From an uncultured Bacteroidota bacterium (lineage in GTDB: Bacteria; Bacteroidota; Bacteroidia; Bacteroidales; P3), in contig CACYJU010000005.1 of NCBI GenBank assembly GCA_902774845.1, positions 22,050-86,049 of the forward strand: 64,000 nucleotides of DNA, given 5' to 3'. The notes under the pieces were generated by a model. The model had not been told where the DNA came from, did no database searches, and was given only the letters and a program-made list of their open reading frames with translations. Positions within the stretch are counted from its first letter, which is position 1. Every line of letters begins with the position of its first letter. The translations under genes were made by a program, and so were the position numbers. Shown here in pieces: positions 1-48,791 of this stretch.

Positions 1-986
1 ATATTTATAGTCCAAAAGAAGTCATGGAATTTGTTTCCAATATAGGAGAGGAATCCAGTTGGAGGGTGTGGCATAGCGTTCCTGCACCTGCACGCGAATT
101 TTTTGACAGAATATTCTGGAACAGTCATACGGAATCAAAAGAGATGCTTTTATATGCTGAACGGGAATACATAAACACCCACTTTGCCAATTATGATCCT
201 GCAAAACAAGATATGTGGGCGGAATACAATCGCCCATGGGATTTTGATCATATTGTTGCACAAATTCGTATCAAAGGAAAGCAAGGGGATTTCCGTGAAT
301 ATGATAAAGTCTGGCTGGATAGCATAGGAAACTTTGCAGCAATATCATATGAATCAAATCGCAGTAAGAGCGATGGGGAGGATTATAGTGAATATTATGC
401 TAATCGTACCTCATTAGATTATAATAGCGATGTGGAGAAATTAAAATATGATTTGACTTATGATGCCTTATCGAGTGTTGAATTTGCGAACATCACCTAT
501 ACCCGTTTCTGTAAAATATATGGCAAAGTGTTTGACTTGATTAGGGAAATTGTTTGTCAGACAACCCTTTCCGATACCCTTTGGGAAAGAAAAGTCTTGT
601 TTGAAGAAGTGAAAAAATTATACCCCAATGCCATATTTCATTTCGCGGCTTCAGATCAAAATGATCACAAATTACAACGCGATCAAGATTGGGCAAGGCA
701 GTGGGTTGGAGTCGGAATCGAGATGGGCAATTATATGGCATGCGTAGAGTGGGCAGCCACTAAGAAAGATGGAAAACCTTCTGGTGTGGAATGTGGCATA
801 AGGAAAGCCCTCGGTACATCTGTAACCCAAGAGAATAAAGACACTCTTGGTGGAGATGATTTGTTGAATGAAGATAATGACTGGTGGTACAAATGTGTTG
901 TGTATGATTCCTTTGAATTAGAAAGCATAAAAATACAGTTAGACAAATATTTACTGGAAATAGAACAAACTAACAAGGCCGTATAA
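1..986 (+). CDS. C-terminal part of a DUF1524 / GmrSD-like His-Me finger nuclease (5' end outside the window)
   Basis: The frame is open from base 3 to the first ATG at 24, so the gene probably starts upstream of the window. WDFDHIVAQ ... IGNFAAISYESNRSKSD fits the DUF1524 (D/E)HIxP ... GN..L....N.SK signature. Confidence 0.6.
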   Translation, partial: IYSPKEVMEFVSNIGEESSWRVWHSVPAPAREFFDRIFWNSHTESKEMLLYAEREYINTHFANYDPAKQDMWAEYNRPWDFDHIVAQIRIKGKQGDFREYDKVWLDSIGNFAAISYESNRSKSDGEDYSEYYANRTSLDYNSDVEKLKYDLTYDALSSVEFANITYTRFCKIYGKVFDLIREIVCQTTLSDTLWERKVLFEEVKKLYPNAIFHFAASDQNDHKLQRDQDWARQWVGVGIEMGNYMACVEWAATKKDGKPSGVECGIRKALGTSVTQENKDTLGGDDLLNEDNDWWYKCVVYDSFELESIKIQLDKYLLEIEQTNKAV

Positions 987-1835: not shown

Positions 1836-2612
1836 ATGGAAGAGAAAAACCTTAATTGGGAAGAGTTTAATAAAGATAATCCATGGCGCAAAGAGATTTT
1901 TAACATTGACACAAATAATCCGGCTGCAATGAAAGATCTAATAGATGAAATTTGTAGTGGAAAAAGAAAGTTCATTTATTCTAAGGATAAAGGACAGATC
2001 AATGAAAAGCGGTTTGAACTATCTTTGTTGCCAAAACCTTATCGTGGAAATCTAAAAGACCCCAAACTTGTCATCTTGAGCCTTAATCCAGGTTATAATG
2101 AACGGGTGAAAACCAAACTGTTTAAGATGCTTAAATATGAAAATCAAAAAAGATTCATTGAAATATCCAAGAAAAACGCTTTGTTGGAATCCCGATATAT
2201 AATATCCCCAGATGATGAAGTGGACGATGTTATGGATAATGGTTATTGGTCAGATCGCTTATCTGAATTAAAAAATGATGGTGCAGAAATATCTCGGATA
2301 GGATTGATACAATTCGTTCCTTACGCATCGGAACATTTTGGTTCATGGAATAAAAAGGAATTAGAAACTCAAAAGTTTACACGAGAAATCATCATGCGCC
2401 TCTTAACCAAGTCAAAGGACACACTTTTTCTTGTCATGCGCTCAAAGGACAAATGGAAAAAACTGATTCCAGAAATGGATAACAAGGAATACAAAGATAA
2501 GTTTCTCTATAATCAGAATCCTCGTTGCCAAAATCTGTCAAAAAACAATTTGAAGGGCAATTACGAGATAATTCTTGGTAAACTAAAGAAATACCCATGC
2601 TCCAATATATAG
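1836..2612 (+). CDS. Hypothetical protein with MUG/TDG-like (UDG superfamily) motif order
   Basis: PKLVILSLNPGYNE (compare Mug GINPG), IGLIQFVPYASEHFG, DTLFLVMRSKDKW and LYNQNPRCQNLS (compare Mug LPNPSG). The last 16 nt overlap the PLD gene start. The function is an inference from these motifs. Confidence 0.45.
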   Translation: MEEKNLNWEEFNKDNPWRKEIFNIDTNNPAAMKDLIDEICSGKRKFIYSKDKGQINEKRFELSLLPKPYRGNLKDPKLVILSLNPGYNERVKTKLFKMLKYENQKRFIEISKKNALLESRYIISPDDEVDDVMDNGYWSDRLSELKNDGAEISRIGLIQFVPYASEHFGSWNKKELETQKFTREIIMRLLTKSKDTLFLVMRSKDKWKKLIPEMDNKEYKDKFLYNQNPRCQNLSKNNLKGNYEIILGKLKKYPCSNI

Positions 2613-3112
2613 CTGATAGAGATCATTATACAGAAGTCCTCTCGCGCTGCGAGCAGGTTAAGCATGACCTTTGGATTGGGACTGCTGACTTGAAGGATTT
2701 GTATGTTAAGGGCGGTAGGGATGTGGTGCCTTTTCTTTCGGTGCTGGACAAACTGGTGAAACGGGGTGTGGAGGTGCGGTTGCTGCATGCTAAGGAGCCG
2801 GGGGAGAACTTCCGCGAGGACTTCGACAAGTATCCTGGACTCTGGTCTCGCATGGAGCGGAGACTCTGCCCAAGGGTGCATTTCAAGATTATGGTGTTCG
2901 ACTGCTCGGTGGCATATATCGGCTCGGCGAACCTCACGGGTGCCGGCATAGGCATGAAGGGCGAGGGTAACCGTAACTTCGAGGCTGGCATACTGACAGA
3001 CGACCCCATGCTGGTGGATGCCGCCGCCAACCATATCGACAGCGTCTGGCAAGGGGTACATTGCATGAAATGCCGCCGCAAAGACTTTTGCACCGATTGC
3101 GTGAAAGCATAA
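2597..3112 (+). CDS. Phospholipase D-family (single HKD) Nuc-like nuclease with a C-terminal Cys cluster
   Basis: Perfect HxKxxxxD-x6-GSxN motif: HFKIMVFDCSVAYIGSANLT. The C-terminus carries CMKCRRKDFCTDC. At 171 aa it is consistent with a dimeric single-HKD enzyme. Confidence 0.8.
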   Translation: MLQYIADRDHYTEVLSRCEQVKHDLWIGTADLKDLYVKGGRDVVPFLSVLDKLVKRGVEVRLLHAKEPGENFREDFDKYPGLWSRMERRLCPRVHFKIMVFDCSVAYIGSANLTGAGIGMKGEGNRNFEAGILTDDPMLVDAAANHIDSVWQGVHCMKCRRKDFCTDCVKA

Positions 3113-3122
3113 CACCTCTCGC

Positions 3123-3154
3123 TATCAACACATCAACCTATCAACTTATCAACA
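3123..3154. repeat. Four 8-bp tandem units (TATCAACA/CATCAACC/TATCAACT/TATCAACA)
   Basis: Read directly from the sequence. The array starts 11 nt after the PLD stop codon. Confidence 0.9.
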
Positions 3155-3191
3155 TTTAGACACTGTGTCACGATTTGACATACTGGGTTGG

Positions 3192-3199
3192 TATCTTTG
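3192..3199 (+). promoter_or_regulatory. Bacteroidetes -7 promoter box TAtcTTTG
   Basis: ggTATCTTTGcaag lies 27 nt upstream of the ATG at 3226. It is preceded by tgtgtcacgatttgaca, which resembles the repeated hairpin modules at 11955, 12789 and 14121. Confidence 0.6.
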
Positions 3200-3225
3200 C
3201 AAGCGGAACTTAAAACTCAAAAATC

Positions 3226-4338: not shown

Positions 4339-4449
4339 AAAGATTTTGATTTGTGAATACCGAGACGGCGGGCATCCTTGCTCGCCGTTTTTTCTTTGAA
4401 AAATATGACACTTTTTATCACTATGACAAGATATGGCATAGTATGTTGT

Positions 4450-4457
4450 TATTTTTG
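4450..4457 (+). promoter_or_regulatory. -7 promoter box TAttTTTG
   Basis: gtTATTTTTGcaagcgg lies 35 nt upstream of the ATG at 4492. Confidence 0.55.
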
Positions 4458-4491
4458 CAAGCGGAAACAAAAAAAGAAAGGAGATAATAAT

Positions 4492-6240
4492 ATGAAAAAA
4501 GATGCTAAGAAAACGGATTCAAGCAAGGAGGAGTTCTTGCAAATGGTAGACGAAGCAATGGGAATTGCAAAGGAGGCAGGATTGGATCTGGTGCCGGCGG
4601 AAGAGGAAGAGCGGGACTTGCTTTCGGAGGTGGAACAGATTGTTGAGCTTGCCAGAGAGTCGAGATTGTCGCAAGAGTTCTATCGTGTTGCGGACAACCA
4701 TATAAGCTATATCGCTGACAAGCTGAATCTGACGAAGAACCAGAGTGTGCTGCTTGCGTTGTTTGTAGACAATAGCGACGACAGCAGTATAGAACTGAGC
4801 GACCTGTCGAGGTATTTGGGTTGCAGCACGACGCGAATGTTACGTCTGTCGACAGAGATAGACGGACTTGTGGAGCGTGATTATATAAGAAAAGGAAAGA
4901 CGAGGGGCGAAGTGAGATATCATGTGCCACAGGAGGTGCTGGAATCCTTGAAAAAGAACCAACCGATAACACGGCGATGTATAGAAAATCTGGACTTGAC
5001 GAAGTTTTTTGACGAGATATCGGAGATATTCGACATGGTGAACGATGACGAGTTGGACATCGAGTCGGCGGAGAGACGCATCGAAGAACTGATGGAAGCC
5101 AACAAGCATCTGTCGTTTGTGGAGAAGGTTAAGGGACAGTATTGCGTTGAAAGACGTGATTTAATCATTCTGTTGATATTCTGCCACCTGTTCATCACGA
5201 ATGCTGACGACCAGATAGGTTTTCACGACTTGGAGTTTATGTTCAGCAGATGGCAGATGCGCAGCATTCGGTCGGAGTTGACGGGGGAATATAGTTCGTT
5301 GCAGCGGGATAAACTGATAGAGTGGAGCAGCAACGGGGGCTTTGCAGACAGGGAGTATTTCAGGCTCACGATGAACGCCAAGCGGGAGCTGCTTGACGAG
5401 CTGAACCTGCCGTCGCTCTCGAAGAATAAGTTGAAGCGCGGAGTGATGAAAGCCAGCGACATCAACGCAAGGAACCTCTTTTATGACACGAAGGTGACGC
5501 ACAGTATAGACGAGCTGGCGAGCCTGCTGGAGGAGGATAACTACCGCGACATACATGCACGGCTGCAGGAGCAGGGTTTCCGCTGCGGTTTCGCCTGCCT
5601 TTTCTACGGTGCTCCCGGAACGGGCAAGACGGAGACGGTGTTGCAGCTGGCACGGCGCACGGGACGTGACATACTTCAGGTGAACATCGCCGAGCTGAAA
5701 AGCATGTGGGTGGGCGAGAGCGAGAAGAACGTGAAGGCGGTGTTCGACTCGTACCGCCAGCAGGTGAAGAGTTCAGCCATCACGCCGATATTGCTTTTCA
5801 ACGAGGCCGACGCCATAATCGGCAAACGACAGGAGGGCGCAGAGCAAGCGGTGGAGAAGATGGAAAACTCCATCCAGAACATCATCCTGCAGGAGATGGA
5901 GACCCTCGACGGCATACTGATAGCCACCACCAACCTGGTGCAGAACATGGACAAGGCGTTTGAGCGCAGGTTCCTGTACAAGATACGGTTTGACAAACCG
6001 ACGGTGGAGGCACGGACGGCGATATGGCATGAGCTGCTTCCGGCATTGGATATGGCAGACGCCACGAAGCTCGCCGAGCGTTACGACTTCAGCGGAGGAC
6101 AGATAGAGAACATCGCCCGCCACTACGCCATCGACGCCATACTGCATGGCCATACTGCACCTACGGCAGAGAACCTGACGGCACACTGCGACTCGGAGAG
6201 GATAAACCAGAAGAATGAGGGGAGGAAGATTGGGTTTTGA
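4492..6240 (+). CDS. AAA+ family ATPase with a long N-terminal (wHTH-like) region
   Basis: Walker A GAPGTGKTE, Walker B ILLFNEADAI, sensor-1 LIATTN, then RRF. The start is placed at the ATG downstream of the -7 box, because the track start at 4378 lies upstream of that promoter. Confidence 0.8.
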   Translation: MKKDAKKTDSSKEEFLQMVDEAMGIAKEAGLDLVPAEEEERDLLSEVEQIVELARESRLSQEFYRVADNHISYIADKLNLTKNQSVLLALFVDNSDDSSIELSDLSRYLGCSTTRMLRLSTEIDGLVERDYIRKGKTRGEVRYHVPQEVLESLKKNQPITRRCIENLDLTKFFDEISEIFDMVNDDELDIESAERRIEELMEANKHLSFVEKVKGQYCVERRDLIILLIFCHLFITNADDQIGFHDLEFMFSRWQMRSIRSELTGEYSSLQRDKLIEWSSNGGFADREYFRLTMNAKRELLDELNLPSLSKNKLKRGVMKASDINARNLFYDTKVTHSIDELASLLEEDNYRDIHARLQEQGFRCGFACLFYGAPGTGKTETVLQLARRTGRDILQVNIAELKSMWVGESEKNVKAVFDSYRQQVKSSAITPILLFNEADAIIGKRQEGAEQAVEKMENSIQNIILQEMETLDGILIATTNLVQNMDKAFERRFLYKIRFDKPTVEARTAIWHELLPALDMADATKLAERYDFSGGQIENIARHYAIDAILHGHTAPTAENLTAHCDSERINQKNEGRKIGF

Positions 6241-6241
6241 T

Positions 6242-6332
6242 GTAAGAAGTAAGATGTAAGAAGTAAGATGTAAGAAGTAAGAGGGAAGAAGTAAGAGGGA
6301 AGAAGTAAGAGGGAAGATGTAAGAAGTAGGAC
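6242..6332. repeat. Thirteen 7-bp tandem units (GTAAGAA/GTAAGAT/GTAAGAG/GGAAGAA)
   Basis: Read directly from the sequence. The array begins 2 nt after the ATPase stop codon. The same heptamer family recurs at 58736-58763. Confidence 0.95.
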
Positions 6333-6390
6333 GTGTCCAGGTTTAATGGGGTTGCTTTGGTTGAAAGTTAAGCAGTAAAAACAATATTTT

Positions 6391-8220: not shown

Positions 8221-8325
8221 TTAATTGGCAACCTCCTTTTTGGGTAGGCTTATGAAGATACTATGGTGCAGGCATTGCTTTGAAAAAAATGCGTATAATT
8301 GCAAAAAAATTAAGTTTATAGAATA

Positions 8326-8565
8326 TGGATACAAATCTTATCGAAAGGAGAAACGCTGAATATCAACCTCTCATAGAGTCGTTCAAAGAGAGAATTAAAG
8401 GACTTGAGCTTGAAGGGATAACGAGACCGCAATTTCGAAGCTGGCATTCTAACCGACGAACCCAATCTCGTTGACGCCGCCGCCGACCACCTCGACAACG
8501 TCTGGCAAGGCCGCCCCTGCAAGAGCTGCAAGAGGAAAGACTTTTGTGGGGATAGGATTAGGTGA
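8326..8565 (+). pseudogene. Chimeric remnant: 5' end of a UDG-like gene (10768 family) joined out of frame to the 3' end of a PLD gene
   Basis: MDTNLIERRNAEYQPLIESFKERIKGLELEGITRPQF parallels MRKNIIDRRNAEYSPLIDDFKDEVKDLNFKGITGPHF of the 10768 ORF. From about 8424, another frame reads RNFEAGILTDEPNLVDAAADHLDNVWQGRPCKSCKRKDFC, parallel to the PLD C-terminus NRNFEAGILTDDPMLVDAAANHIDSVWQGVHCMKCRRKDFC. Confidence 0.75.
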
Positions 8566-8602
8566 GACTATAACGTCACTTGCATCTATAGTGGAATATT
8601 AG

Positions 8603-8610
8603 TACCTTTG
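8603..8610 (+). promoter_or_regulatory. -7 promoter box TAccTTTG
   Basis: agTACCTTTGcaaac lies 33 nt upstream of the ATG at 8643. Confidence 0.55.
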
Positions 8611-8642
8611 CAAACATTTATAAACCTAAAATCAATACCACT

Positions 8643-9185
8643 ATGAAAAAATACGACATCAGCGAGCTTGAGGCCGAACTGGAAGGCCTGTCCCTTTTGG
8701 AAAAGAAGTCGCATCTTGAGAATGTGCAGAACGATATTGAATCAGAAATAGAGGAACTGGAAACGGCAAAAGACGAAGTGGAAGAACTGTTGAGTGATGT
8801 TGAGAACCAGATCAACGAAGGCTACAAGTCGGAGATAGCCACCGCACTCAAAGGTTTTTCGTCTGATGTGTGCAAGCTTCTTCCCGACAATACGCTCGAC
8901 ATTGAAGGTCTGAAGTTTGAGTTCTATAGGTTCTGCGAAGACGACGACACACTACATATCTCCATCAGTGGTAGAAAAACCATCGTCAATACCGGCGATT
9001 TCAATGCCGAGTTCAAGGCATTCCTGCAGCCGATACTACCCGATGCCAAATACAAGGACATGCAGATATGCATCCACATTGACGACAACAGCGAGGTTGC
9101 AGCTCTGGTCAAAGGAATAGCTGAGAAACTAATCACTGAAGCGCCAAAGATTGTTGAGATGGGTGGGAAGTATAAGTTTGTGTAG
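8643..9185 (+). CDS. Hypothetical protein with an acidic coiled-coil N-terminus
   Basis: 180-aa ORF downstream of a -7 box. The N-terminal 60 aa are rich in E, L and D heptads. Confidence 0.5.
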   Translation: MKKYDISELEAELEGLSLLEKKSHLENVQNDIESEIEELETAKDEVEELLSDVENQINEGYKSEIATALKGFSSDVCKLLPDNTLDIEGLKFEFYRFCEDDDTLHISISGRKTIVNTGDFNAEFKAFLQPILPDAKYKDMQICIHIDDNSEVAALVKGIAEKLITEAPKIVEMGGKYKFV

Positions 9186-9256
9186 GTATAACACCACAAA
9201 AATATGTCTATACAGGGTAATATTGGATGATAACTTATAACAAAACCTAATTAATC

Positions 9257-9973
9257 ATGGAACAATTAAGAGAAAATCTAAAACGTTTGTATCACGATTT
9301 CTTTGTTGACATGAAGATTGATCAACAAACAGGCATTGTCAATGGGACAAATCGAAGGTTCACTGGATACCCATACATCGGGGGCAACTATATAAACGCT
9401 CCTGTTAAAATATTGTTTATACCTTTAGATGTGGGTGTAGATGAAAGAGAAAATGAAAACACATACCATACATTTGAAAGTCGAAAAGACATTTTCCCAT
9501 CAGGCAAGCTTGATTTTAATCCACATATTGCGGGTTTATATGCAACTGCTCTTTATATTCTCAAGGAAAAAATGGGATTACAGGCTGCATGGGATGCTCT
9601 TTGGGGAAATAGAAAATATAATAATGTAAAAGCCATTAATCTGGCTTACGATTCTTTGCCCAAAGATCTTATGTCGTATGTGGCCTATGAAAATCGATTT
9701 CGTTTCGTCACAATTGGTAGAAAAGAAAGAAGTGGAGGCAACGATCGTGTTTGGATTAATCCAAAAAGAGAAGGTCAACTTTTAGTAACTGAAATTAATG
9801 CCTTCTCTCCAGATATTATTGTCTTTCAAGGAAAATATGGATTAGGCAATTGTCATATTGATGAACTAAAGGAGAAATATAAGGTTGTTATTGCATACCA
9901 TCCGTCATGTTGGCAGCATAGGGCTAATAGATTAGAATACATAGTGGATCACATTGGTCCACAATTGTTATAA
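9257..9973 (+). CDS. Hypothetical protein with UDG-superfamily-like motif order (paralog 1)
   Basis: Ordered motifs: VKILFIPLDVGVDE, SYVAYENRFRFV, SPDIIVFQGKYG, VVIAYHPSCWQH. They parallel UDG family-4 elements (hhhhGEAPG, N.VK, IV.LG, HPS). Confidence 0.5.
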   Translation: MEQLRENLKRLYHDFFVDMKIDQQTGIVNGTNRRFTGYPYIGGNYINAPVKILFIPLDVGVDERENENTYHTFESRKDIFPSGKLDFNPHIAGLYATALYILKEKMGLQAAWDALWGNRKYNNVKAINLAYDSLPKDLMSYVAYENRFRFVTIGRKERSGGNDRVWINPKREGQLLVTEINAFSPDIIVFQGKYGLGNCHIDELKEKYKVVIAYHPSCWQHRANRLEYIVDHIGPQLL

Positions 9974-10183
9974 GTGAAAGGCGTCTTTTGTATTTTGTGT
10001 TAGAAACCATGTAATCTAAACATTATTATGAAAACAATAAAAGAACTTTAAAAACTACAATCACAAGTCGTTAATGAAATCTATAACCATGCGAGGAAAC
10101 TAGGATTAAGTAATGATGACCTTGAACCAATAACGGACGGTGTTTGTTCCATTGAAGGCTACATAAATTCATCCCCTAAAATT

Positions 10184-10744
10184 ATGTGGATATTAAAGGA
10201 ACCTTATGATGATTTTGACGAAGATAAACCTAATGGAGGAGGATGGTCCATTACTGAACATTGTTTCGGGGGAAAAGATGATATATGGTCCCAGCGTACG
10301 TGGCAACCGATAATCTATGTCATGTATGGCTATCTACATAGCTTGATGTGGCAAGATATGGACTGGATAAGAGATAACAAGGATATGGCAGACGTTTTAA
10401 AAGACATAGCATATATCAATGTCAGTAAAATGCCTGGATATACTCGTTCAACATGGACCAACATCAGTCACTGTTATTCTTTGTGGAAACCCATTCTTGA
10501 CAAACAATTTGATATATATGACCCCAATGTTATTGTTTGTGCAGGGACACTGTCATTTTTTAAAGAGGACTTTGTTAAAAGCGGTATGTTACAGATTGAT
10601 TCGGTGCAAAGTGCGATAGATGTATATAGATTGGATAAGAAGATTATAATTGACGCATATCATCCGTTACAAACGAAAATAGACAGGAGCTCATATGTGG
10701 ATTCAATTATAAAAATGCTTAACAAGTATTTTCCGAAAAGTTAA
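10184..10744 (+). CDS. UDG-superfamily-like paralog 2, apparently N-terminally truncated by an in-frame TAA
   Basis: MWILKEPYDD, IAYINVSKMPGYT, YDPNVIVCAGTLSFF, IIIDAYHPLQ. The same frame reads MKTIKEL-TAA-KLQSQVVNEIYNHARKLGLSNDDLEPITDGVCSIEGYINSSPKI from the ATG at 10028. Confidence 0.5.
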   Translation: MWILKEPYDDFDEDKPNGGGWSITEHCFGGKDDIWSQRTWQPIIYVMYGYLHSLMWQDMDWIRDNKDMADVLKDIAYINVSKMPGYTRSTWTNISHCYSLWKPILDKQFDIYDPNVIVCAGTLSFFKEDFVKSGMLQIDSVQSAIDVYRLDKKIIIDAYHPLQTKIDRSSYVDSIIKMLNKYFPKS

Positions 10745-10767
10745 TGGAATCGAAATGTTAAAATGGT

Positions 10768-11919
10768 ATGAGAAAAAATATTATTGATAGAAGGAATGCT
10801 GAGTATTCTCCCCTGATTGATGATTTCAAAGATGAGGTAAAGGATTTGAATTTCAAAGGAATCACAGGTCCTCACTTCCCGAGTATTGGCGAATGCTATG
10901 AAGATGCAAAATATAAGTTTGCTTTTTGTGGTATGGAAACGTATGGATGGAACAAAATGCCGTATTTTATGGAACAAAAACCAGACTCATATTTGACTGA
11001 AAGTGATACCCTTCTTAATAATTATGAACATCTGACTTGGGCAGCAAACTGGCATGCAACATTTTGGGGATTTGTCTTCAAGTTTTTAGCCAAATTCTAT
11101 AAGATGGAATTTGAAAAACTAGTCAATGATAAGAACGACTTTAACGCCCGTTCTCTTCTAAAAAGTTTCGTATGGGCAAATTCAAATGCTATTGAACGGT
11201 ATGATGTAACAAGCAAATGGGAAGGTGCTGATCAAGCAGCATGGGAGTCTGTTAAAAGCGCCAGTAAAAGATTTGACGATATTAACCACATACTCAATTC
11301 ATGTGATCCAAAAGTTGTTTTTATCATTTATGGCGGAGCAAATGAAGAATATATGCTGAATGAAAAAACAATAAGTGATATTTATGGCATTGACCCTAAC
11401 CAAAGAAAAGGTTGGTTGCGATTGCGTCATAATAACCCTAAATATGACTATATTTATCTTCGCAGTACATCTACACACATTTTCCACTTGCCTCATCCTA
11501 CCTGGATGGGTTTATATAGCGGTATAGGAATAGACGCTTATGTGGATTCGTTGATTCAAGATATCGAAAACTATCATATTTGGGATAAATTACCAAATTC
11601 GAATGATGACTGGAACATGAATATGGTGGATGAAGTCGAACCTTCAACTATCGATTTCAAATATCGACTGATTGCTTCGGTCGCACATTCTTTGGTTCAG
11701 AATAATGTGGTAATGTGTGGCGGTGATATGGTTAGATTATTCAATATGAACGGAATTCATACGCAAAGAGGTTCTGACTATTCAAACAACATTAGTCAAG
11801 GATCATATAAGCCCATTTCCAGTGCTTGGGCATACTATTATAATAGGGGTGATTATCAGACGGCATACGAAATCGCACGAGCTTTTGTTAATCAAAATGG
11901 AGAATATGCCTACGAATAA
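10768..11919 (+). CDS. UDG-superfamily-like paralog 3 with a roughly 110-aa C-terminal extension
   Basis: KYKFAFCGMETYGWN, SFVWANSNAIERY, CDPKVVFIIYGGANE, THIFHLPHPTWMG. The N-terminus is homologous to the remnant at 8326. Confidence 0.5.
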   Translation: MRKNIIDRRNAEYSPLIDDFKDEVKDLNFKGITGPHFPSIGECYEDAKYKFAFCGMETYGWNKMPYFMEQKPDSYLTESDTLLNNYEHLTWAANWHATFWGFVFKFLAKFYKMEFEKLVNDKNDFNARSLLKSFVWANSNAIERYDVTSKWEGADQAAWESVKSASKRFDDINHILNSCDPKVVFIIYGGANEEYMLNEKTISDIYGIDPNQRKGWLRLRHNNPKYDYIYLRSTSTHIFHLPHPTWMGLYSGIGIDAYVDSLIQDIENYHIWDKLPNSNDDWNMNMVDEVEPSTIDFKYRLIASVAHSLVQNNVVMCGGDMVRLFNMNGIHTQRGSDYSNNISQGSYKPISSAWAYYYNRGDYQTAYEIARAFVNQNGEYAYE

Positions 11920-11954
11920 AAGGCTGTGATTATTTGAAAATCCAATCTTTTGAA

Positions 11955-12038
11955 GGAGTGTCACAATCTGGCACTCCTTTTGTTTTTCTTTGCATCTTGT
12001 AACAGGAAAGCAAAACTTATTTATTTACTTAAAACTTT
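11955..12038 (+). promoter_or_regulatory. Terminator-promoter-leader module, copy 1
   Basis: Hairpin GGAGTGTCAcaatcTGGCACTCC, a T-tract TTTTGTTTTT, a TTTG box (ttctttgcatc), and the leader cttaaaactttatgattatga. It is similar to the modules at 12789 and 14121. Confidence 0.65.
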
Positions 12039-12530: not shown

Positions 12531-12606
12531 CCGTTACACCGTTGCACCGTTGCAGTTCGTTTTTCATATAGGGGGATTTTCACTTGGAACTGCAACGGTG
12601 CAACGG
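12531..12606. repeat. Perfect 20-bp inverted repeat built from CCGTTGCA 8-mers (three forward, two reverse)
   Basis: Left side is ccgttaca ccgttgca ccgttgca gttc (12531-12558). A 28-nt spacer follows. Right side is gaac tgcaacgg tgcaacgg (12587-12606). Confidence 0.9.
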
Positions 12607-12788
12607 CAAAAATGCCCTGATTCGTAATCATCTGATTACCAATGGATGTTAAATTCCGTGTGTTGTGGGAGTTGACTGGGAGTTAGTACGGAGTTGGTAC
12701 GGAGCTAAACGAATTTTGAATTCCTAATTTTGAATTATGAATATAGACGGGGACTTTTTCAAGTTGAAAGTTGATTTTTTTTGTGGGA

Positions 12789-12857
12789 GTGTCACGATGT
12801 GGCACACCTTTTGTTTTTCTTTGCAACTTGAAAAAACAAACAAAACGTTTATGCATT
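12789..12857 (+). promoter_or_regulatory. Terminator-promoter-leader module, copy 2
   Basis: GTGTCACgatGTGGCAC hairpin, ACCTTTTGTTTTT, ctttgcaacttgaaaaaacaaac. It lies directly upstream of the ATG at 12858. Confidence 0.65.
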
Positions 12858-14099: not shown

Positions 14100-14120
14100 G
14101 TCGTGTGTGTGTTTCGACAT

Positions 14121-14199
14121 GTGTCACGATGTGGCACACCGTTTTTGTTTCTTTGCAACTTGAAAGAACAAACAAACTTAATTATTCACTTAAAACTTA
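14121..14199 (+). promoter_or_regulatory. Terminator-promoter-leader module, copy 3
   Basis: GTGTCACgatGTGGCACAC, CGTTTTTGTTT, ctttgcaacttgaaagaacaaac, and the leader cttaaaacttaatgattatga. Confidence 0.65.
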
Positions 14200-15295: not shown

Positions 15296-15523
15296 ATGAT
15301 TATGAGTAAAGTATTCAGAATTACACCCAAGGCGGTGCGCAGGGTTAACGGAACGGTGCTGACACCGGAAATGACGGTTGTGGTCACGACCAAACAACAC
15401 ACATTAGACCCCTTCTATAATGGGGCTGAGGAGGTGCAGGAGGCGTACATGCGGATGTACGGATTCGACTACAAGAAGGCCGGCTGCTGCAAAAGCTACT
15501 TCACGTTTGAGAGGCTTGATTAA
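15296..15523 (+). CDS. Small hypothetical protein (75 aa)
   Basis: ORF preceded by the same leader (gaacttaatgattatga). I recall similar small proteins on Bacteroidales conjugative elements, but I cannot verify this here. Confidence 0.45.
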   Translation: MIMSKVFRITPKAVRRVNGTVLTPEMTVVVTTKQHTLDPFYNGAEEVQEAYMRMYGFDYKKAGCCKSYFTFERLD

Positions 15524-16052: not shown

Positions 16053-17054
16053 ATGGAGAATATCAACGACAAGATAGTCATTTATCAGACGGAGGATGGG
16101 CAGACCGCTATTGATGTGCGGTTGGAACAGGAAACGGTTTGGCTGACAGCCAACCAAATGGCCTTCCTTTTTGACAGAGATGATAAAACAATTAGAAAGC
16201 ACATTGACAATGCAATAAAGGAGGAATTGTCCGATTCAGTGGTTGTCGCAAAATTTGCGACAACCACTCCGCATGGTGCCATTGAAGGCAAAACACAAAC
16301 ACGTTTGGTCAATTACTACAACCTCGATGTCATTATTTCTGTGGGTTATCGGGTTAAGTCTAAAAGAGGTGTGGATTTTAGACGTTGGGCAAACCGCGTG
16401 TTGAAGGATTATCTCGTCAAAGGATACGCCATTAACGAGAAACTGCGCAAGGAACAGATAGGTGAGCTGCGCCAGCTGGTGGGGATGCTGGGGCGTACAC
16501 TTCAGAGCCAACCGCTGCTTTCGAACGATGAGACCACTGCGCTGTTCGATGTGGTGACCGATTACACATACGCCCTCGACACTCTCGACAGCTACGACTA
16601 CCAGCGGTTGACCGTGAACGGTACCACTAACGAGGCTGCTTTTCATGCCACCTACGAAAACGCTGTGCAAGCCATAAACTCGCTGAAGGAACGCTTCGGC
16701 GAAAGTAGCTTGTTCGGAAACGAGAAAGATGATTCGTTCAAAAGTTCAATCGGGCAGATATACCAGACGTTCGACGGCGCAGAGCTTTATCCCAGCACCG
16801 AGGAAAAGGCAGCCATGCTACTATACCTCGTCACCAAGAACCATTCGTTCAGCGACGGCAACAAGCGTATCGCCGCCACTTTGTTCCTGTGGTTTTTGAA
16901 CAACAACCATATCCTTTATCGCGAGGACGGCAGCAAGCGCATTGCCGACAATACACTTGTCGCTCTCACGCTGATGATTGCGGAGAGTCGTCCGGAAGAG
17001 AAGGACGTCATGGTGAAAGTGGTGGTAAACTTAATAAACAAGAATAACTTATGA
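16053..17054 (+). CDS. RhuM-family N-terminal domain fused to a Fic/Doc domain (Doc-type motif)
   Basis: The N-terminus IVIYQTEDGQTAIDVRLEQETVWLTANQMAFLFDRDDKTIRKHI is typical of RhuM proteins. The C-terminal HSFSDGNKRIAA matches the Doc motif HxFx(D/N)(A/G)NKR. Confidence 0.8.
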   Translation: MENINDKIVIYQTEDGQTAIDVRLEQETVWLTANQMAFLFDRDDKTIRKHIDNAIKEELSDSVVVAKFATTTPHGAIEGKTQTRLVNYYNLDVIISVGYRVKSKRGVDFRRWANRVLKDYLVKGYAINEKLRKEQIGELRQLVGMLGRTLQSQPLLSNDETTALFDVVTDYTYALDTLDSYDYQRLTVNGTTNEAAFHATYENAVQAINSLKERFGESSLFGNEKDDSFKSSIGQIYQTFDGAELYPSTEEKAAMLLYLVTKNHSFSDGNKRIAATLFLWFLNNNHILYREDGSKRIADNTLVALTLMIAESRPEEKDVMVKVVVNLINKNNL

Positions 17055-17986
17055 ATCCATTGAAGAAATACATCTGGCTGGTGGATACTGTGATGAGGGC
17101 AGGGGAGAAGGGGGCTACTTTAAACCAGATCTCAAACGCCTACGCCTATGACGACGAGATAGGCGGCGGAGGGGAGTATAACCAGCGGTCGTTTCATAGA
17201 CACCGCAAGGAGGTGCAGGAACTGTTTGGCATCGAAATCGAGTGCTACAGTGACGGCAGTCAGTTCCGCTACCGTGTGGCCGACAGCGGCAAGGAGGGAT
17301 ATTTCCGTCGCTGGCTGCTTGACTCGATAGCCGTGAACCGCATTTTGTGGACTGCGACCATAGGGAGCGACCCGCAAAAAAGCGACAGCAAGGATGTAGC
17401 GCCATATATAGCCATCGAAGAAACGAGGTCGGAGCCGTTGCCGATAGTGCTGCAGGCGTTGAAACAGCAGCAGATGGTGCAGTTTGACTACCAGCCATAC
17501 TGGAGCAAAGAGGCTGTCCACTATTTCAACTTCCAGCCTCATGCGTTGAAGATGTTCGAGCGGAGGTGGTATCTCATAGGCCGCTATAAAGAAGAGATGC
17601 CGCATATCATACTGGCGTTGGACAGGGTCTCTGGAATGGAGCTGCAGGAAGAATCGTATGAGAGGGATCCGGATTTCGACGTGGAGGAGATGTTCCGCGA
17701 CAGCTACGGTATCATCCTTAAAGCCGACGAGGTTGCTGTGGAAGAGGTGTGGCTGAAGGTGGATCCTTATCAGGCGAACTATGTGCGGTCGTTGCCGCTG
17801 CATCACTCGCAGTTCGAGGTGAAGCAGACGGACGAGTTCTCTGTGTTTTGTATGAGGTTGCGTCCGACGTTGGATTTCATTCAGAAGCTGCTGTCGTTGG
17901 GAAGTACGGTGGAGGTGATGAAACCAGAATGGTTGAGAGATGAGATGCGGAAGGAAATAAAAAGTATGCTGGGAAAATACAAATGA
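17051..17986 (+). CDS. WYL-domain transcriptional regulator
   Basis: N-terminal wHTH-like KKYIWLVDTVMRAGEKGATLNQIS, and a literal FERRWYLIGRY. A 4-nt ATGA overlap with the upstream gene indicates an operon. Confidence 0.75.
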   Translation: MNPLKKYIWLVDTVMRAGEKGATLNQISNAYAYDDEIGGGGEYNQRSFHRHRKEVQELFGIEIECYSDGSQFRYRVADSGKEGYFRRWLLDSIAVNRILWTATIGSDPQKSDSKDVAPYIAIEETRSEPLPIVLQALKQQQMVQFDYQPYWSKEAVHYFNFQPHALKMFERRWYLIGRYKEEMPHIILALDRVSGMELQEESYERDPDFDVEEMFRDSYGIILKADEVAVEEVWLKVDPYQANYVRSLPLHHSQFEVKQTDEFSVFCMRLRPTLDFIQKLLSLGSTVEVMKPEWLRDEMRKEIKSMLGKYK

Positions 17987-18186: not shown

Positions 18187-18384
18187 GCCGAGTCGTAGCC
18201 GAAAATGACACCACCCGTCGGTGGCAACTTGGGCGAAAGCGGCGTTAAAAAATCTTAATTTTGATATTTGGTAAGGTTGATGTCTTGACTTTACTATGAC
18301 TTAACTATGACTTTACCATAACGTAACGAAGGAAGAAGGAAAAATTATGATGGAGGATGTCCTGCACTGAAGGTGGTATGGGTG

Positions 18385-18528
18385 GTGTATACAAAGTGTA
18401 TAGAAGGTGTATACAAAGTGTATAGAGGGTGTATACAAAGTGTATAGAGGGTGTATACAAAGTGTATAGGGGACTGTACACAAACTGTATAGAGGACTGT
18501 ATACAAACTGTATACAAATTGTATGAAA
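18385..18528. repeat. Thirteen tandem 11-bp units (GTGTATACAAA alternating with GTGTATAGAGG, degenerating to ACTGTATACAA)
   Basis: Read directly from the sequence. The period is 11 bp (22-bp super-unit), and each unit contains a TGTATA core. Confidence 0.95.
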
Positions 18529-18545
18529 AATAATATGAATCAGTA

Positions 18546-18634: not shown

Positions 18635-19546
18635 TCAACTGTCTTCATACATGGAAGCCATATTCAGCAGAGTCGATTTGATTTGAGTTCTTAGAGATTT
18701 TGGTTTAAGGATTTCGACTTTGTTGTCGTAGGTGAGCAGTTCATGTATGAAATCCGGTGTGGGACGAAGAAAAAGGCGGAAAATACTATAGTCGTCGGTA
18801 GTGGTGATTTCTTCCTGACTATCGTGCAAAGGCAGCGATCGCAGATATTTGGCCGAGACGTTGTTAACCTTGAGTTCTATGATTTGCGGGGGAATCTTGG
18901 CATCAAGGAAAACACCGAAGAAACTGCCAAAGAAGTCGGTCGGGTTGAAGTTGTCTGGTAGTCCAAATGTGTCAGCTTGGAGCTTCAAGTCTGACATGCG
19001 GTCGAGGGCATATATCTTGCACTTGTCGAGAGTCTTTCCGCCGTAGAGGTACCAGCGTCGTTTGTACATCTTTAGACATACTGGCATGAAGTCATTGTAA
19101 TACAGCTCATCTTGTTTTTGGAAACGAGTGTATAGGAAGCTTATTTTGTGGTTCTGCTGTATGGCTTGAAGGCATAGTGTGAGGTTTGGCTCCGACGACG
19201 GAACCTCTTCGAGGATAATGCGGTCGCGGATTTTGTCGTTCTCCGAAAGCAGGTTGTTGAGCGAGATCGACTCAAGCAGCCATTTGCGGAATGGCGAGGT
19301 GTGGCGTATTGAGTCGTTATCGGCGATATAGTATCGATAATTGTCGCTGTGGCAAAGAATTTCTATATCAAATATTTCGGCAATATCGTGACGGTGGTTG
19401 TGGAAAGTCCGGATGTTGTATTGTCCGCCACCCGAGATAAAGTCAGATTTTGTATATTTGTTGCTGATTTCTTCAAACGTAAGTCCATATTCTCCAGCAT
19501 GTGAAAGTGTGTCAATCAGCCATATATATTTGTTTAGGATATTCAT
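18635..19546 (-). CDS. WYL-domain transcriptional regulator (paralog of 17051-17986)
   Basis: MNILNKYIWLIDTLSHAGEYGLTFEEIS parallels the 17051 protein, and YKRRWYLYGGK is present. The start is set at 19546, downstream of a minus-strand TAttTTTG box (plus-strand caaaaata at 19568-19575). Confidence 0.75.
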   Translation of the reverse strand: MNILNKYIWLIDTLSHAGEYGLTFEEISNKYTKSDFISGGGQYNIRTFHNHRHDIAEIFDIEILCHSDNYRYYIADNDSIRHTSPFRKWLLESISLNNLLSENDKIRDRIILEEVPSSEPNLTLCLQAIQQNHKISFLYTRFQKQDELYYNDFMPVCLKMYKRRWYLYGGKTLDKCKIYALDRMSDLKLQADTFGLPDNFNPTDFFGSFFGVFLDAKIPPQIIELKVNNVSAKYLRSLPLHDSQEEITTTDDYSIFRLFLRPTPDFIHELLTYDNKVEILKPKSLRTQIKSTLLNMASMYEDS

Positions 19547-19618
19547 GATAAGGAGTTTTCTTCTTTTGCAAAAATAATATTTTTCTGTGGTATGAAACAG
19601 ATTTGCACACCTCAGGTG

Positions 19619-19626
19619 TATCTTTG
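19619..19626 (+). promoter_or_regulatory. -7 promoter box TAtcTTTG for the zinc-ribbon/nuclease operon
   Basis: gtgTATCTTTGcaaaaaa lies 29 nt upstream of the ATG at 19655. It is divergent from the WYL gene promoter. Confidence 0.6.
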
Positions 19627-19654
19627 CAAAAAATTCAAAACGATTAACAAACAA

Positions 19655-19861
19655 ATGGAAAGATGCAAATGGTGTGGCCGTCCGATTCAAGGAATCGGCG
19701 TGTCCGACGGATTCATAAGCTTCAGCGGACGTTACTGCTCAGAGAAATGCAAAGAAGAACATCGTCAAAGCAAAGCCGCAAAAGGCAAATCCGGCAAATC
19801 AAGCCTAATCTGGTGGATAATAGCCGCAATAGCGCTAGCAATCCTCTTTATGGCAAAATGA
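19655..19861 (+). CDS. Small zinc-ribbon protein with a C-terminal TM helix (68 aa)
   Basis: MERCKWCGRPIQ ... YCSEKCKEEH, then SLIWWIIAAIALAILFMA. Confidence 0.55.
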   Translation: MERCKWCGRPIQGIGVSDGFISFSGRYCSEKCKEEHRQSKAAKGKSGKSSLIWWIIAAIALAILFMAK

Positions 19862-46686: not shown

Positions 46687-46757
46687 TGTCCCATGGTGTA
46701 ATGGTAGCACATCAGATTTTGGTTCTGCTTGCCCAAGTTCGAATCTTGGTGGGACAA
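46687..46757 (+). tRNA. tRNA-Gln (UUG)
   Basis: Acceptor TGTCCCA/TGGGACA, D arm GTGT-AATGGTA-GCAC, anticodon loop TTTTGGT, T arm CCAAG-TTCGAAT-CTTGG. Folded by hand. Confidence 0.85.
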
Positions 46758-46760
46758 CGA

Positions 46761-46791
46761 AGAGCATCCGATTGAGGATGCTCTTTTTTTG
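46761..46791 (+). terminator. Rho-independent terminator
   Basis: AGAGCATCC-gattga-GGATGCTCT followed by TTTTTTT. Confidence 0.8.
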
Positions 46792-46992
46792 TGGCTTCTT
46801 TTGAACACGGATCTCTCGACTCACGAAGTGACGGTGAGCTCCGCTGAATCGAATAAAATGTAGCGAACAATTTTCACGGATTCTTTGATTCTGGTCGCTT
46901 CGCTCAAAATCTTTCGAAAATCTATCTTAAAATCCATAGAAAACCATTGACGTAATCGGATGAGCCGTTAACCATTTACTCCGAAGGAGGCA

Positions 46993-47030
46993 ACCATTAA
47001 CCACTAACCGTTAACCACTAACCATTAACC
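46993..47030. repeat. Five to six 7-bp tandem units (AACCATT/AACCACT/AACCGTT)
   Basis: Read directly from the sequence. Confidence 0.9.
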
Positions 47031-47096
47031 AAAAAAGTCACCACCTCGAAGGTGCCCTACGGTTGGTTTGGTAGCAGAAAAAGTGTAATTGTTGTT

Positions 47097-47861
47097 TCAT
47101 ATTGTACTACTTGTGCTACCACAAACTCCAAATACACCGGATTTGTCCTCCCAGATTTTTTCCCCCTTGTTGTTGAAATACACCACATGACCGTTAAGAC
47201 GAGAGGTCACGAATTGTAATTCGTAATCAACAGCAGCAGCTTCAAAATATTCAGTGAAAGGTGTCTCGTAAATAACAGGTGCCAAAGTATTGCCATAGAT
47301 GTCCACCAAGCCATACTTCTCATTAAGTTTCGTATCTTTAAGTTCAACCATAAATACATCATCAAAGATGGATTTCAATTCATCATATTGAGGGTAAATG
47401 GCAATTCCTTTTTTGTTAGCCAAGCCCTTTTCCCAACCTTGGTGAAGAACGAACCCGCTGCCACACTTCTCAATAAAATCAAATTGAGGCTCTACAATAA
47501 TAGTGTCTCCAAAAATGAGTCCATATTTAAAAACATCCCAATCCTTTTTTTCACTAATAAGCCAAATTCCATCACCCAATTCGCGTAGTCGTCTATATGA
47601 ATGCGGCGTTTTATTGACAAAAACTTTCCAGTATTCGTCCGTAACTTGCTCGAACGGATAATTGCATGGGATTACTGTTTCCCCAATTTTGTTTATAAAT
47701 CCATATTTTCCGTCAATCATAACACATGCAATTCCATCGGAGAATAAGTACGCTTCGTCATACTGTGGAGGTATCACAACCTCGCCCTTAAGGTTAATGT
47801 AGCCCCATTTTTCTCCCATGGGTACGGAAAGTAACTCGTTGTCATTGTATTCTTCTTTCAT
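47097..47861 (-). CDS. WG-repeat (KWG) protein
   Basis: EKWGYINLKGEVVIPPQYDEA, GKYGFINKIGETVIP, EKYGLVDIYGNTLAP. Confidence 0.75.
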   Translation of the reverse strand: MKEEYNDNELLSVPMGEKWGYINLKGEVVIPPQYDEAYLFSDGIACVMIDGKYGFINKIGETVIPCNYPFEQVTDEYWKVFVNKTPHSYRRLRELGDGIWLISEKKDWDVFKYGLIFGDTIIVEPQFDFIEKCGSGFVLHQGWEKGLANKKGIAIYPQYDELKSIFDDVFMVELKDTKLNEKYGLVDIYGNTLAPVIYETPFTEYFEAAAVDYELQFVTSRLNGHVVYFNNKGEKIWEDKSGVFGVCGSTSSTI

Positions 47862-47862
47862 G

Positions 47863-48555
47863 TTATTGGATGTTTAAGTATTCGCATAATTGGGTTATTT
47901 CGTCTCGGTGTATTCTCTCCTCGGATTTCAAACGGCTCTGCATTGAGCATACAAAAAGATGCGACCCCTCAAGTTTGGTTTTGCTGTCATCACCGTAGTT
48001 AATTCTTCTGTTATCATTCAACAATCCATTGATGCGATAAAGTGTTCCCTTTTCTCCAAGTCGTCTCGGCAGTTCAACTCGTTCCAAATCATAGCCCATC
48101 CACGGTGCATCCGGTTTTGTCCCATAATAGAACGCCGATGATTTGTTGGCATGGATTATCAGTTGGGGCTTCAGCCGTTCTAATTCACGCTGAGTTACCC
48201 TGAGTATTTCTGCTTTTAGCTTTAATGGAACGTACTTTTCAAATTCGTGTTTCTGTTTCGTTACCCGTAGGGGGAAGAGGTCAATGTAGCCAGCATCGTA
48301 AAACGCAAGATTTCTTTTCCACAGGTTCCAGTATCTGCCAGAGCAATCATGAAAAGGGATTGGTTCAGCCTTTTCTTTCCCATCGAACGACGGATTGACA
48401 CCTGAAAGCAAAATTCCGCCACCTTTATTGCCGATACAAAGCCAAAAGCCTCGCTTCAAAATATCTTCAAGTTCAGGATACCGTTTTTTCCAAGATTCTC
48501 CTTGATCGTTTTTCCAGCGGTCTATTGCCGCATTATATTCTTTTTCTAATCTCAT
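47863..48555 (-). CDS. Hypothetical protein with MUG/TDG-like motif order (same family as 1836-2612)
   Basis: GGGILLSGVNPSFDGKE, YWNLW, AGYIDLFPLRVTKQ, KPQLIIHANKSSAF. It sits in an AT-rich islet with a 1-nt spacer to the WG-repeat gene. Confidence 0.4.
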   Translation of the reverse strand: MRLEKEYNAAIDRWKNDQGESWKKRYPELEDILKRGFWLCIGNKGGGILLSGVNPSFDGKEKAEPIPFHDCSGRYWNLWKRNLAFYDAGYIDLFPLRVTKQKHEFEKYVPLKLKAEILRVTQRELERLKPQLIIHANKSSAFYYGTKPDAPWMGYDLERVELPRRLGEKGTLYRINGLLNDNRRINYGDDSKTKLEGSHLFVCSMQSRLKSEERIHRDEITQLCEYLNIQ

Positions 48556-48751: not shown

Positions 48752-48791
48752 CACTCAAGCACTCAAGCACTCAAGCATTCACGCACTCCCC
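48752..48791. repeat. Five 8-bp tandem units (CACTCAAG x3, CATTCACG, CACTCCCC)
   Basis: Read directly from the sequence. The stop codon of the minus-strand gene (48771-73) lies inside unit 3. Confidence 0.9.

Follow-up and report, generated by a model that had tools for sequence, protein, structure and literature searches.

Divergent glycosylase-fold genes in a putative defence island of an uncultured rumen-type Bacteroidales bacterium

Anti-phage DNA glycosylases and the locus under study

Anti-phage DNA glycosylases have been recognised only in the years 2024-2026, and few families are characterised. Brig1, Brig2 and Brig3 have divergent folds of the uracil-DNA glycosylase (UDG) type and are encoded at AT-rich loci linked to mobile genetic elements (PMC11078745; 10.1101/2025.10.29.685425; 10.64898/2026.02.25.707755). 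Brig1 excises alpha-glucosyl-hydroxymethylcytosine (alpha-glucosyl-hmC) from phage DNA (PMC11078745), Brig2 acts on the hypermodified thymidine of phages (10.1101/2025.10.29.685425) and Brig3 acts on 5-hydroxymethylcytosine (5hmC), with a helper, BapA, that deglucosylates (10.64898/2026.02.25.707755). Three tandem genes, termed A, B and C, are considered here. They lie in a stretch of 64,000 nucleotides from an uncultured Bacteroidota bacterium of the Bacteroidales (contig CACYJU010000005.1, positions 22,050 to 86,049 of the forward strand), referred to below as the window. It appears rather probable that their products are antiviral DNA glycosylases that differ in specificity, and that the cluster was built up by the accretion of cassettes. 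The genes fit the Brig kind by their fold, catalytic positions, island context, co-occurrence with the GmrSD restriction enzyme and absence from phage collections.

Brig1 is a single-gene effector of defence islands. It has a fold of the UDG superfamily, with the family-4 UDG of S. tokodaii as its best structural match, as is the case for C. Brig1 recognises the base with Glu (PMC11078745), and Asn is retained at this position in A, B and C. Its hosts are Actinobacteria, in contrast to the rumen Bacteroidales found here. The NCBIfam model of Brig1, NF047634, has an equivalog cut-off of 230 bits, against which a fourth gene of the window, D, reaches 17.7 bits. A, B and C do not match this model, and no link to Brig1 or to the D family is detectable from their sequences.

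Brig2 has a highly divergent UDG fold that was found by structure and not by sequence, and its homologues are located in AT-rich regions near mobile elements and defence genes, Bacteroidota included (10.1101/2025.10.29.685425). The Asn that A, B and C have kept would be in keeping with substrates of the uracil or thymine type, and the likeness to Brig2 is one of description only. Brig2 is a solitary gene of Vibrionaceae integron cassettes, whereas several UDG-fold genes are stacked in one unit here. The Brig3-BapA operon, in which the helper widens the range, is a precedent for multi-gene glycosylase modules, again by description only. The partner of Brig3 is a BapA-like hydrolase; here, the partner would be a PLD-family nuclease, DUF6140 or the product of gene F.

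The kind of gene is therefore already known, being Brig-like, while the A, B and C families are without a Pfam or NCBIfam model. The Brig papers do not describe three families in one unit together with a Brig1-like fourth, nor the C-terminal domain of C, nor the recurrent adjacency to PLD and DUF6140 genes. With three further families from a lineage that is abundant in gut and rumen, the repertoire would become wider. They would also be a sign that phages of Bacteroidales carry DNA hypermodifications yet to be described, and would offer candidate enzymes for the detection or mapping of modified bases.

Gene cluster and motif layout

Genes A (9257-9973; 238 amino acids), B (10028-10744) and C (10768-11919; 383 amino acids) are encoded on the forward strand. 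The original prediction, which was made from the sequence alone, described open reading frames (ORFs) at 9257-9973, 10184-10744 and 10768-11919 with four motifs in the order of the UDG layout. All three ORFs are present on this strand, and every motif string that was quoted occurs in their translations; the ORF at 10184-10744 is the remaining 186-amino-acid tail of B. The description of an AT-rich block also holds, as the GC content is 0.35-0.37 at 9-12 kb against approximately 0.52 in the rest of the window.

The order of the motifs mirrors the UDG layout when it is read on AlphaFold2 models of A and C. Motif 1 directly follows beta1 (residues 52-56 in A and 51-55 in C), and motif 2 follows beta2 (142-144 and then N146 in A; 134-138 and then N140 in C). 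Motif 3 is beta3 itself (187-191 in A; 183-187 in C), and motif 4, HP[ST], is found after beta4 (209-213 in A; 236-241 in C). The catalytic loop after beta1, the Asn after beta2 and the HP[S/T/A]-type loop after beta4 are thus all present.

The invariant residues of the A family are D58, G60 and E63 in motif 1, N146 in motif 2 and H215-P216-S217 in motif 4, with FIPLDVGVDE and YHPSCW as the motif strings of its alignment. Those of the B family are K49, E50, N123, K126, P128, Y203, H204 and P205, and those of the C family are G55, E57, T58, W61, N140, P242, H243 and P244. Motif 1 is of the type LDxGxDE in A, KEP in B and GMET in C. Since the motif residues remain unchanged within each family across orthologues of 37-80% identity, the motifs are taken to be more than chance.

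Fold of the encoded proteins

With family alignments as input, AlphaFold2 yielded a model of A with a predicted local distance difference test (pLDDT) score of 92.1 and a predicted template modelling (pTM) score of 0.90; the values for C were 86.1 and 0.72. A Foldseek search of the PDB with the model of A gave SMUG1 (5h98; E 1.3e-4, probability 1.0) as the best match, followed by UdgX, TDG and family 4. For C, the top 42 matches were all members of the UDG superfamily, led by the S. tokodaii family-4 UDG 4zby (E 2.8e-4, probability 1.0). Essentially nothing else was matched at high probability by either model, in agreement with the fold that had been proposed. In the viral structure library BFVD, only distant phage UDG domains were matched.

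Gene B is assigned to the same fold more indirectly, and its placement would follow from profile links to the A family and to 4zbx. The B-family profile matches this S. tokodaii family-4 UDG in the PDB (E 0.0035) in an alignment that runs through YHP, and B itself shows a weak match to NCBIfam TIGR00758 (E 0.1). The stretch AYINVSKMPG of B, which is outside the region aligned to 4zbx, resembles what is presumably the Asn motif of family 4. Among the A family, 15 of 22 members match Pfam PF03167, with a best E of 1.1e-5. Searched against the PDB, the A profile reached only E 1.2 (T. maritima UDG), and the C and D profiles found no match. None of the profile searches placed any of these proteins in an unrelated characterised family. 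At the level of the fold, membership of the UDG superfamily, with its alpha/beta architecture around a central four-stranded parallel sheet, is therefore supported by models for A and C, by profiles for B and through the hidden Markov model (HMM) of Brig1 for D.

Within the superfamily, family 4 (S. tokodaii 4ZBX/4ZBY, T. maritima TM0511) is the best match for C and SMUG1, of family 3, for A. The order of strands and motifs is the same in family 4 and SMUG1 as in A and C, namely beta1 and catalytic loop, beta2 and Asn, beta3, then beta4 and HP[ST]. However, the GEAPG and GMNPG motifs of these families are absent from A, B and C, and no four invariant cysteines corresponding to the Fe-S cysteines of family 4 are seen in the A, B or C families. 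Against the family-4 models TIGR00758 and NF040953, B scores 12.3 bits where the cut-off is 125.3, and A and C have no match. The likeness of A to SMUG1 is one of fold only, at 8-14% identity and without GMNPG or HPSPRN. In contrast to core repair UDGs, A, B and C carry large insertions and reside in accessory AT-rich islands.

Gene C is composed of a UDG-fold domain (residues 1 to about 270) and a conserved, helical C-terminal domain (about 285-383) for which no Pfam or PDB match was found. A match of the latter to baculovirus VP80 (E 0.009) was judged to be due to chance. Homologues of C that lack this domain occur at two loci of other genomes (L041 and L043).

Catalytic positions

Each of the three families keeps an acidic residue (D58/E63 in A, E50 in B, E57 in C), an Asn (N146, N123, N140) and a His (H215, H204, H243). 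In UDGs of families 1 and 4, these positions serve for water activation, base recognition and stabilisation of the leaving group. The account of N82 and F55 in the Brig1 paper also entered into this comparison (PMC11078745). The invariance of all three in every family argues for the retention of catalysis. The Asn in contact with the base, as in uracil-type enzymes, in place of the Glu of Brig1, hints at substrates derived from uracil or thymine.

Distinct families in one cluster

The genes had been described as diversified paralogs standing side by side, and this did not hold. All-against-all BLASTP of A to D, of a further ORF, E, and of their neighbours gave nothing significant, the best E being 0.066. 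Alignment of profiles with hhalign did connect the B and A families over motifs 2-4 (probability 89.6%, E 1.9e-6). The remaining comparisons were weak: A and C aligned over the N-terminal helix, a hairpin and motif 1 (probability 10.8%), and B and C with motifs 2-4 in register (7.7%). Both alignments are consistent with a common fold and are no proof of one. The D family showed no relation to A, B or C in hhalign.

Each of A, B and C belongs to a well-populated family of its own, with orthologues of 40-80% identity in Bacteroidales and Prevotella metagenome assemblies. As no pairwise similarity is found, and as three distinct families share a fold and a plan of motifs, "paralogs" is too strong a word; with D, three or four separate families are represented. 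Unrelated cassettes seem to have accreted in the cluster, which does not look like the product of local duplication.

A premature stop codon in gene B

The reading frame of B opens with an ATG at 10028, encodes MKTIKEL and meets a TAA at codon 8 (10049-10051), after which it continues as KLQSQVVNEIY into the annotated ORF. That ORF starts just before beta1. An intact gene would have approximately 238 codons, and full-length homologues of 232-242 amino acids align across the upstream extension with a sense codon (E or K) at about the position of the TAA. This is consistent with a nonsense change of a single base. An alternative genetic code was considered for the in-frame TAA and rejected, as neighbouring genes end normally and homologues carry the sense codon. 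The identical stop is seen in three independent metagenome contigs, from which it follows that B is truncated or inactive in this strain lineage.

Genes D and E

The original prediction counted five UDG-like ORFs and a remnant in the window. A, B, C, D and the remnant stand; ORF E (47863-48555, reverse strand; 230 amino acids), put forward as the fifth, is not established. A scan of the whole window with the four family HMMs revealed no further UDG-like ORFs.

Gene D (1836-2612, forward strand) encodes a Brig1-like protein of the UDG superfamily with 258 amino acids and the motif LSLNPGY, and the PLD nuclease gene begins within its 3' end. Its match to NF047634 has an E of 0.0019. This model is matched by 28 of the 47 aligned members of the D family, the best at E 1.8e-13, below equivalog level. 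The library contains 379 relatives of D among its cluster representatives at 50% identity. Judged by these sequence scores, D would be a distant Brig1-like protein of the UDG superfamily and not an orthologue of Brig1.

For E, hhalign against the D family aligned motif 1 only (probability 2.8%). E was compared with the MUG/TDG family (family 2), which is marked by a GINPG-type motif 1, a downstream RFW motif and the UDG fold. BLASTP against an approximate sequence of E. coli MUG gave E 2e-4 over 64 amino acids at its N-terminus. The 33%-identical homologue of E did not reproduce this match (E 7.5); the motifs GVNPSF and GRYW of E are conserved in it. Nothing was found for E in the PDB (phmmer), in Pfam, with a D-family HMM of 151 sequences or with a three-sequence profile. 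This homologue, the only one and a distant one, is encoded beside a tail-fibre-like gene on an unverified phage contig from human faeces (MT835917.1). E itself is located in an AT-rich islet next to a tRNA-Gln gene (46687-49556), together with a WG-repeat protein (47097-47861) and a 261-amino-acid ORF.

A relic gene pair and the PLD nuclease

A remnant upstream of the cluster had been proposed as a fourth member of the series. It is indeed the N-terminus of a C-family gene by HMM; it starts at 8325 and not at 8326, and it is fused to the 3' end of a PLD gene. Codons 1-37 of the remnant ORF (8325-8474, forward strand; 49 amino acids) are of C-family origin and the rest is out-of-frame junk. The peptide MDTNLIERRNAEYQPLIESFKERIKGLELEGITRPQF matches positions 1-37 of the C-family HMM with an E of 1.6e-9 among 1127 ORFs of the window. 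Joined to it in another frame on the same strand are the last 47 codons and the stop of a PLD-nuclease gene (8422-8565), whose peptide RDRNFEAGILTDEPNLVDAAADHLDNVWQGRPCKSCKRKDFCG aligns with the C-terminus of PLDc. At the DNA level, 8408-8546 is 73% identical over 139 nucleotides to 2952-3090 (repeat D3) within the intact PLD gene (2597-3112). The DNA of the remnant and the 5' end of gene C share only about 66% identity, suggesting that the remnant is not a recent copy of C and derives from a different allele.

C and PLDc genes are neighbours, at most 31 bp apart, in five loci of other genomes (L011, L026, L033, L036 and L040). This adjacency and the fused fragments identify the remnant as the scar of a C-PLD pair. 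By sequence, 8325-8565 reads as the relic of a former C-to-PLD gene pair that underwent internal deletion.

A second scar is observed at 989-1035, right after GmrSD, and consists of the first 14-15 codons of a PLD gene with a dead start (MLQYIADRDIYTEVL...). Direct repeats of 59 nucleotides (983-1041 and 2591-2649; 78% identical), each with a PLD 5' end, flank the segment that holds the genes H213 and D. They suggest the insertion or exchange of cassettes by recombination at the PLD gene. C-family genes elsewhere may be frameshifted (L038, 3926-5091) or truncated (L045, 9980-10453), in addition to those without the C-terminal domain (L041 and L043). Such damaged copies indicate a rapid turnover of the family.

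The association with PLD raises the question of whether the UDG-fold proteins are non-catalytic sensors, which would bind or flip a modified base and recruit or license the PLD nuclease or other effectors. C or D adjoins or overlaps a PLD gene in six independent arrangements, and the relic at 8325-8565 attests to a former pair. The non-canonical motif 1 of all three families and the extra conserved domain of C would also suit such a role. However, the acidic residue, Asn and His at the catalytic positions are invariant, and homologues of A and B are often found without PLD. Brig1, Brig2 and Brig3, moreover, act alone (PMC11078745; 10.1101/2025.10.29.685425; 10.64898/2026.02.25.707755). A purely sensory function is thus considered improbable, and active glycosylases are the preferred reading.

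Island context and recurrence in other genomes

The island comprises the 24 kb upstream of dnaE. It begins with the C-terminal part of GmrSD, a type IV (modification-dependent) restriction enzyme (24-986, forward strand; 791 amino acids as a whole, continuing upstream of the window), whose GmrSD_N domain is found on the full-length gene in L001. H213 and D follow, and then the PLD-family nuclease (forward strand; 171 amino acids; Pfam PLDc_2, 9e-12; PADLOC DrmC, 1.3e-8), u189, an RNase T-like exonuclease, an AAA ATPase, DUF932 and G226. Next are the C-PLD relic and genes F, A, B and C. Beyond these lie an FtsK-like gene, u347, DUF6140, a Zn-ribbon gene, RhuM/Fic, a WYL-WCX gene (17051-17986, forward strand), a candidate regulator of the island, and a second WYL gene on the reverse strand (18635-19690). 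VATC, u240, DUF6946, REase-ARP, u397 and u201 complete the series before DnaE. PADLOC labels the PLD protein as DrmC-like, the exonuclease as PDC-S48-like (DEDDh) and the ATPase as IetA-like, and also calls a WYL protein.

Similar parts recur in other genomes in different orders. WYL, RNase T, AAA, A, C and PLD genes follow each other in L011-13. In L004, the order is WYL, RNase T and RhuM/Fic, then DUF6140 and A after an interval, and PLD and a DnaE-like gene after a further one. L047 carries WYL, RNase T, RhuM/Fic, DUF6140 and B, and L046 carries DUF6140, B and, further on, GmrSD. The order GmrSD, PLD, C, AAA, RhuM/Fic and WYL is found in L026, and C, u189, D, RhuM/Fic and WYL in L029. In L014, genes for a PglX-like methylase, PglZ, BrxL and HNH are followed at intervals by REase-ARP and then by C and DUF6140, placing the C homologue next to and downstream of bacteriophage exclusion (BREX) genes. 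L044 pairs C with a B-like gene, and GmrSD also adjoins genes of the B family (L046) and the C family (L026).

In L004, the gene right after DUF6140 is of the A family; in L046 and L047, the same slot is taken by one of the B family. A C-family gene directly precedes DUF6140 in L014 and L015. From these reshuffled orders, the slot after DUF6140 belongs to A or B genes and the one before it to C genes, and pairs of genes from different UDG families are frequent. The DUF6140 gene, of 72-78 amino acids, overlaps the downstream A or B gene by 4 bp or is separated from it by 7 bp (L004, 9768-10738; L046, 3968-4912; L047, 3594-4532). In L014 (10001-11506), it lies just downstream of the C-family gene; in the window, at about 15302-15523, it stands apart from the A-B-C cluster. 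DUF6140 is possibly a small partner or a marker of cassettes. The recurrent PLD pairing and the swapping of UDG families in one slot provide testable leads on how effectors are combined and exchanged.

The C family has a patchy distribution, mostly in rumen Bacteroidales metagenome-assembled genomes with occasional occurrences in Lachnospiraceae, Fibrobacteres and Leptospirales. Its GC content is at or below that of the surrounding 20 kb in all 21 genome loci and clearly lower in most, and a WYL gene is located within 10 kb at 12 of the 21. The genes are therefore found among defence genes in an AT-rich, horizontally acquired region, as is described for Brig-type enzymes.

A role in defence or counter-defence had been anticipated. 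The context of GmrSD, DrmC-like, IetA-like and BREX genes favours defence. Counter-defence is disfavoured, as a pattern scan of 2.9 million IMG/VR viral contigs found no member of the A and C families and one relative of the B family, in an uncultivated virus genome (UViG) of 54 kb.

Several observations weigh against a defensive glycosylase function. The Foldseek TM-scores of A and C are modest (0.4-0.5), values that are consistent with a conserved core bearing large insertions. Motif 1 (LDxGxDE, KEP, GMET) is unlike that of all characterised UDG families, and activity is inferred. A, B and C are recognised by none of PADLOC, PHROGs and NCBIfam: for the single sequences, Pfam, PADLOC and PHROGs returned no match and NCBIfam weak hints only. 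With B reduced to a pseudogene, this strain can have no more than two functional genes among the three in tandem. The scan of viral contigs was based on patterns and could miss distant phage copies. A DNA-damage regulon would also be compatible with the WYL regulators, the RNase T-like exonuclease and the polymerase genes nearby, namely dnaE in the window and a Y-family polymerase gene in L015 and L047. Lastly, one more distant homologue of the B family stands beside an MGMT-like (PF01035) gene.

These last points lead to the view that the proteins are accessory repair glycosylases, which would remove damaged or misincorporated bases from host DNA under a WYL-controlled damage regulon comparable to PafBC or DriD. 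WYL-WCX and an RNase T-type exonuclease head most of the islands, the island of the window abuts dnaE, and the Y-family polymerase genes of L015 and L047 are near. The MGMT-like gene is two genes away from the B-family homologue, and the pattern of Asp/Glu, Asn and His is the one seen in repair enzymes of the uracil type. However, the distribution is patchy, the genes are AT-rich and the cassettes are shuffled between genomes. The neighbours include GmrSD, the DrmC-like nuclease, the IetA-like ATPase, REase-ARP and BREX, and a pseudogene and deletion relics in one strain indicate dispensability. WYL regulators, furthermore, also control BREX, CBASS and CRISPR loci. A repair function is therefore regarded as unlikely.

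It has also been considered that the island is an integrated mobile element which the proteins serve, for instance by removing uracil or modified bases from transferred DNA, excluding competitor elements or countering host defence. DUF932 and FtsK/SpoIIIE genes flank the cluster, five tandem repeats of 22 nucleotides are located at 18386-18497, and the cassettes share promoter heads and recombination scars. One B homologue is in the 54-kb UViG and the E homologue is on the unverified phage contig. On the other hand, the island genes examined included no integrase, relaxase or phage structural gene, the pattern scan of viral contigs yielded no member of the A and C families, and islands lacking DUF932 or FtsK carry these cassettes too. 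The exclusion of competitors is itself a form of defence. There would seem to be little chance that the genes mainly serve such an element, and defence remains the favoured interpretation.

Proposed mode of action

A, B, C and D, the last encoded 7 kb upstream, would be monofunctional glycosylases of the UDG superfamily that act as anti-phage effectors. Each enzyme would scan DNA and flip a non-canonical base into its pocket, the target being a hypermodified pyrimidine that is used by some phages and not by the host. Hydrolysis of the N-glycosidic bond would leave abasic sites that block phage replication and may be cut to breaks by host apurinic/apyrimidinic endonucleases or by the neighbouring PLD nuclease. 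Self DNA would be spared, as host DNA is without the modified base. The cassettes stacked here are unrelated, and each would probably have a base specificity of its own; they would have been collected in a WYL-regulated defence island with GmrSD. In this strain, B is knocked out by the nonsense codon, and an earlier C-to-PLD pair has been reduced to a relic.

A more elaborate proposal is that the UDG-fold proteins, of at least four unrelated families (A to D), are interchangeable readers of modified bases that plug into a WYL-controlled promoter and operator frame with the PLD nuclease, and perhaps with DUF6140 or F, to form a glycosylase-plus-nuclease module of multiple specificity. This proposal is tentative, and somewhat doubtful at present. 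If true, a cassette module that includes the new C-terminal domain of C would exceed the single-gene paradigm of Brig.

Transcription signals and gene F

Gene F (8643-9185, forward strand; 180 amino acids) is the first gene of the F-A-B-C unit. Its first 65 residues form an extremely acidic coiled coil. Library scans, Pfam among them, returned coiled-coil noise matches only, and among the related loci examined there is no homologue of F. The protein might act as a DNA mimic or as a regulator.

The Bacteroides promoter has a -7 consensus of TAnnTTTG. A -7 box of this Bacteroidetes type, TACCTTTG (8603-8610, forward strand), is located 33 nucleotides upstream of F in a degenerate copy of a repeated element and represents a putative promoter. 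A further -7 box at 9173 lies upstream of A, and no box-like promoter was found between A and B or between B and C. It is inferred that F-A-B-C, or at least A-B-C, are expressed as one transcript.

The repeated element (D4/D5) is 65 nucleotides long and heads several cassettes of the island. Copies are found at 3152-3215, 4410-4473, 11948-12014, 12779-12845 and 14108-14177, with the degenerate one at approximately 8560-8625. It is built of an imperfect palindrome, GTGTCAC-N3-GTGGCAC, followed by the -7 box TAnnTTTG. The palindrome may be a shared candidate operator, possibly for the WYL proteins. The operator/promoter copy at 11948-12014 (forward strand), just after gene C, is probably where the A-B-C transcript ends and the next cassette begins. 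It contains a strong, terminator-like hairpin with a 12-bp stem (11952-11980); the reading of this hairpin as a plain terminator was set aside, as it is part of the repeated element and its role is ambiguous.

Other repeats

The 5' untranslated region and first codons MIM[KR]NVL are repeated at 12013, 14174 and 15277. Between the convergent WYL genes, a tandem array of 11/22 nucleotides (TGTATACAAAGTGTATAGAGGG) occupies 18365-18531, with about five 22-mers at 18386-18497; by its arrangement, it would be iteron-like or regulator-binding. A purine-rich tandem repeat of 7/14 nucleotides, GTAAGAA/GTAAGAG, is located at 6220-6334 between the AAA ATPase and DUF932 genes. A perfect 20-nucleotide inverted repeat, CCGTTGCACCGTTGCAGTTC ... 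GAACTGCAACGGTGCAACGG, with a spacer of 28 nucleotides, lies at 12539-12606, within the 850 bp that separate C from the FtsK-like gene.

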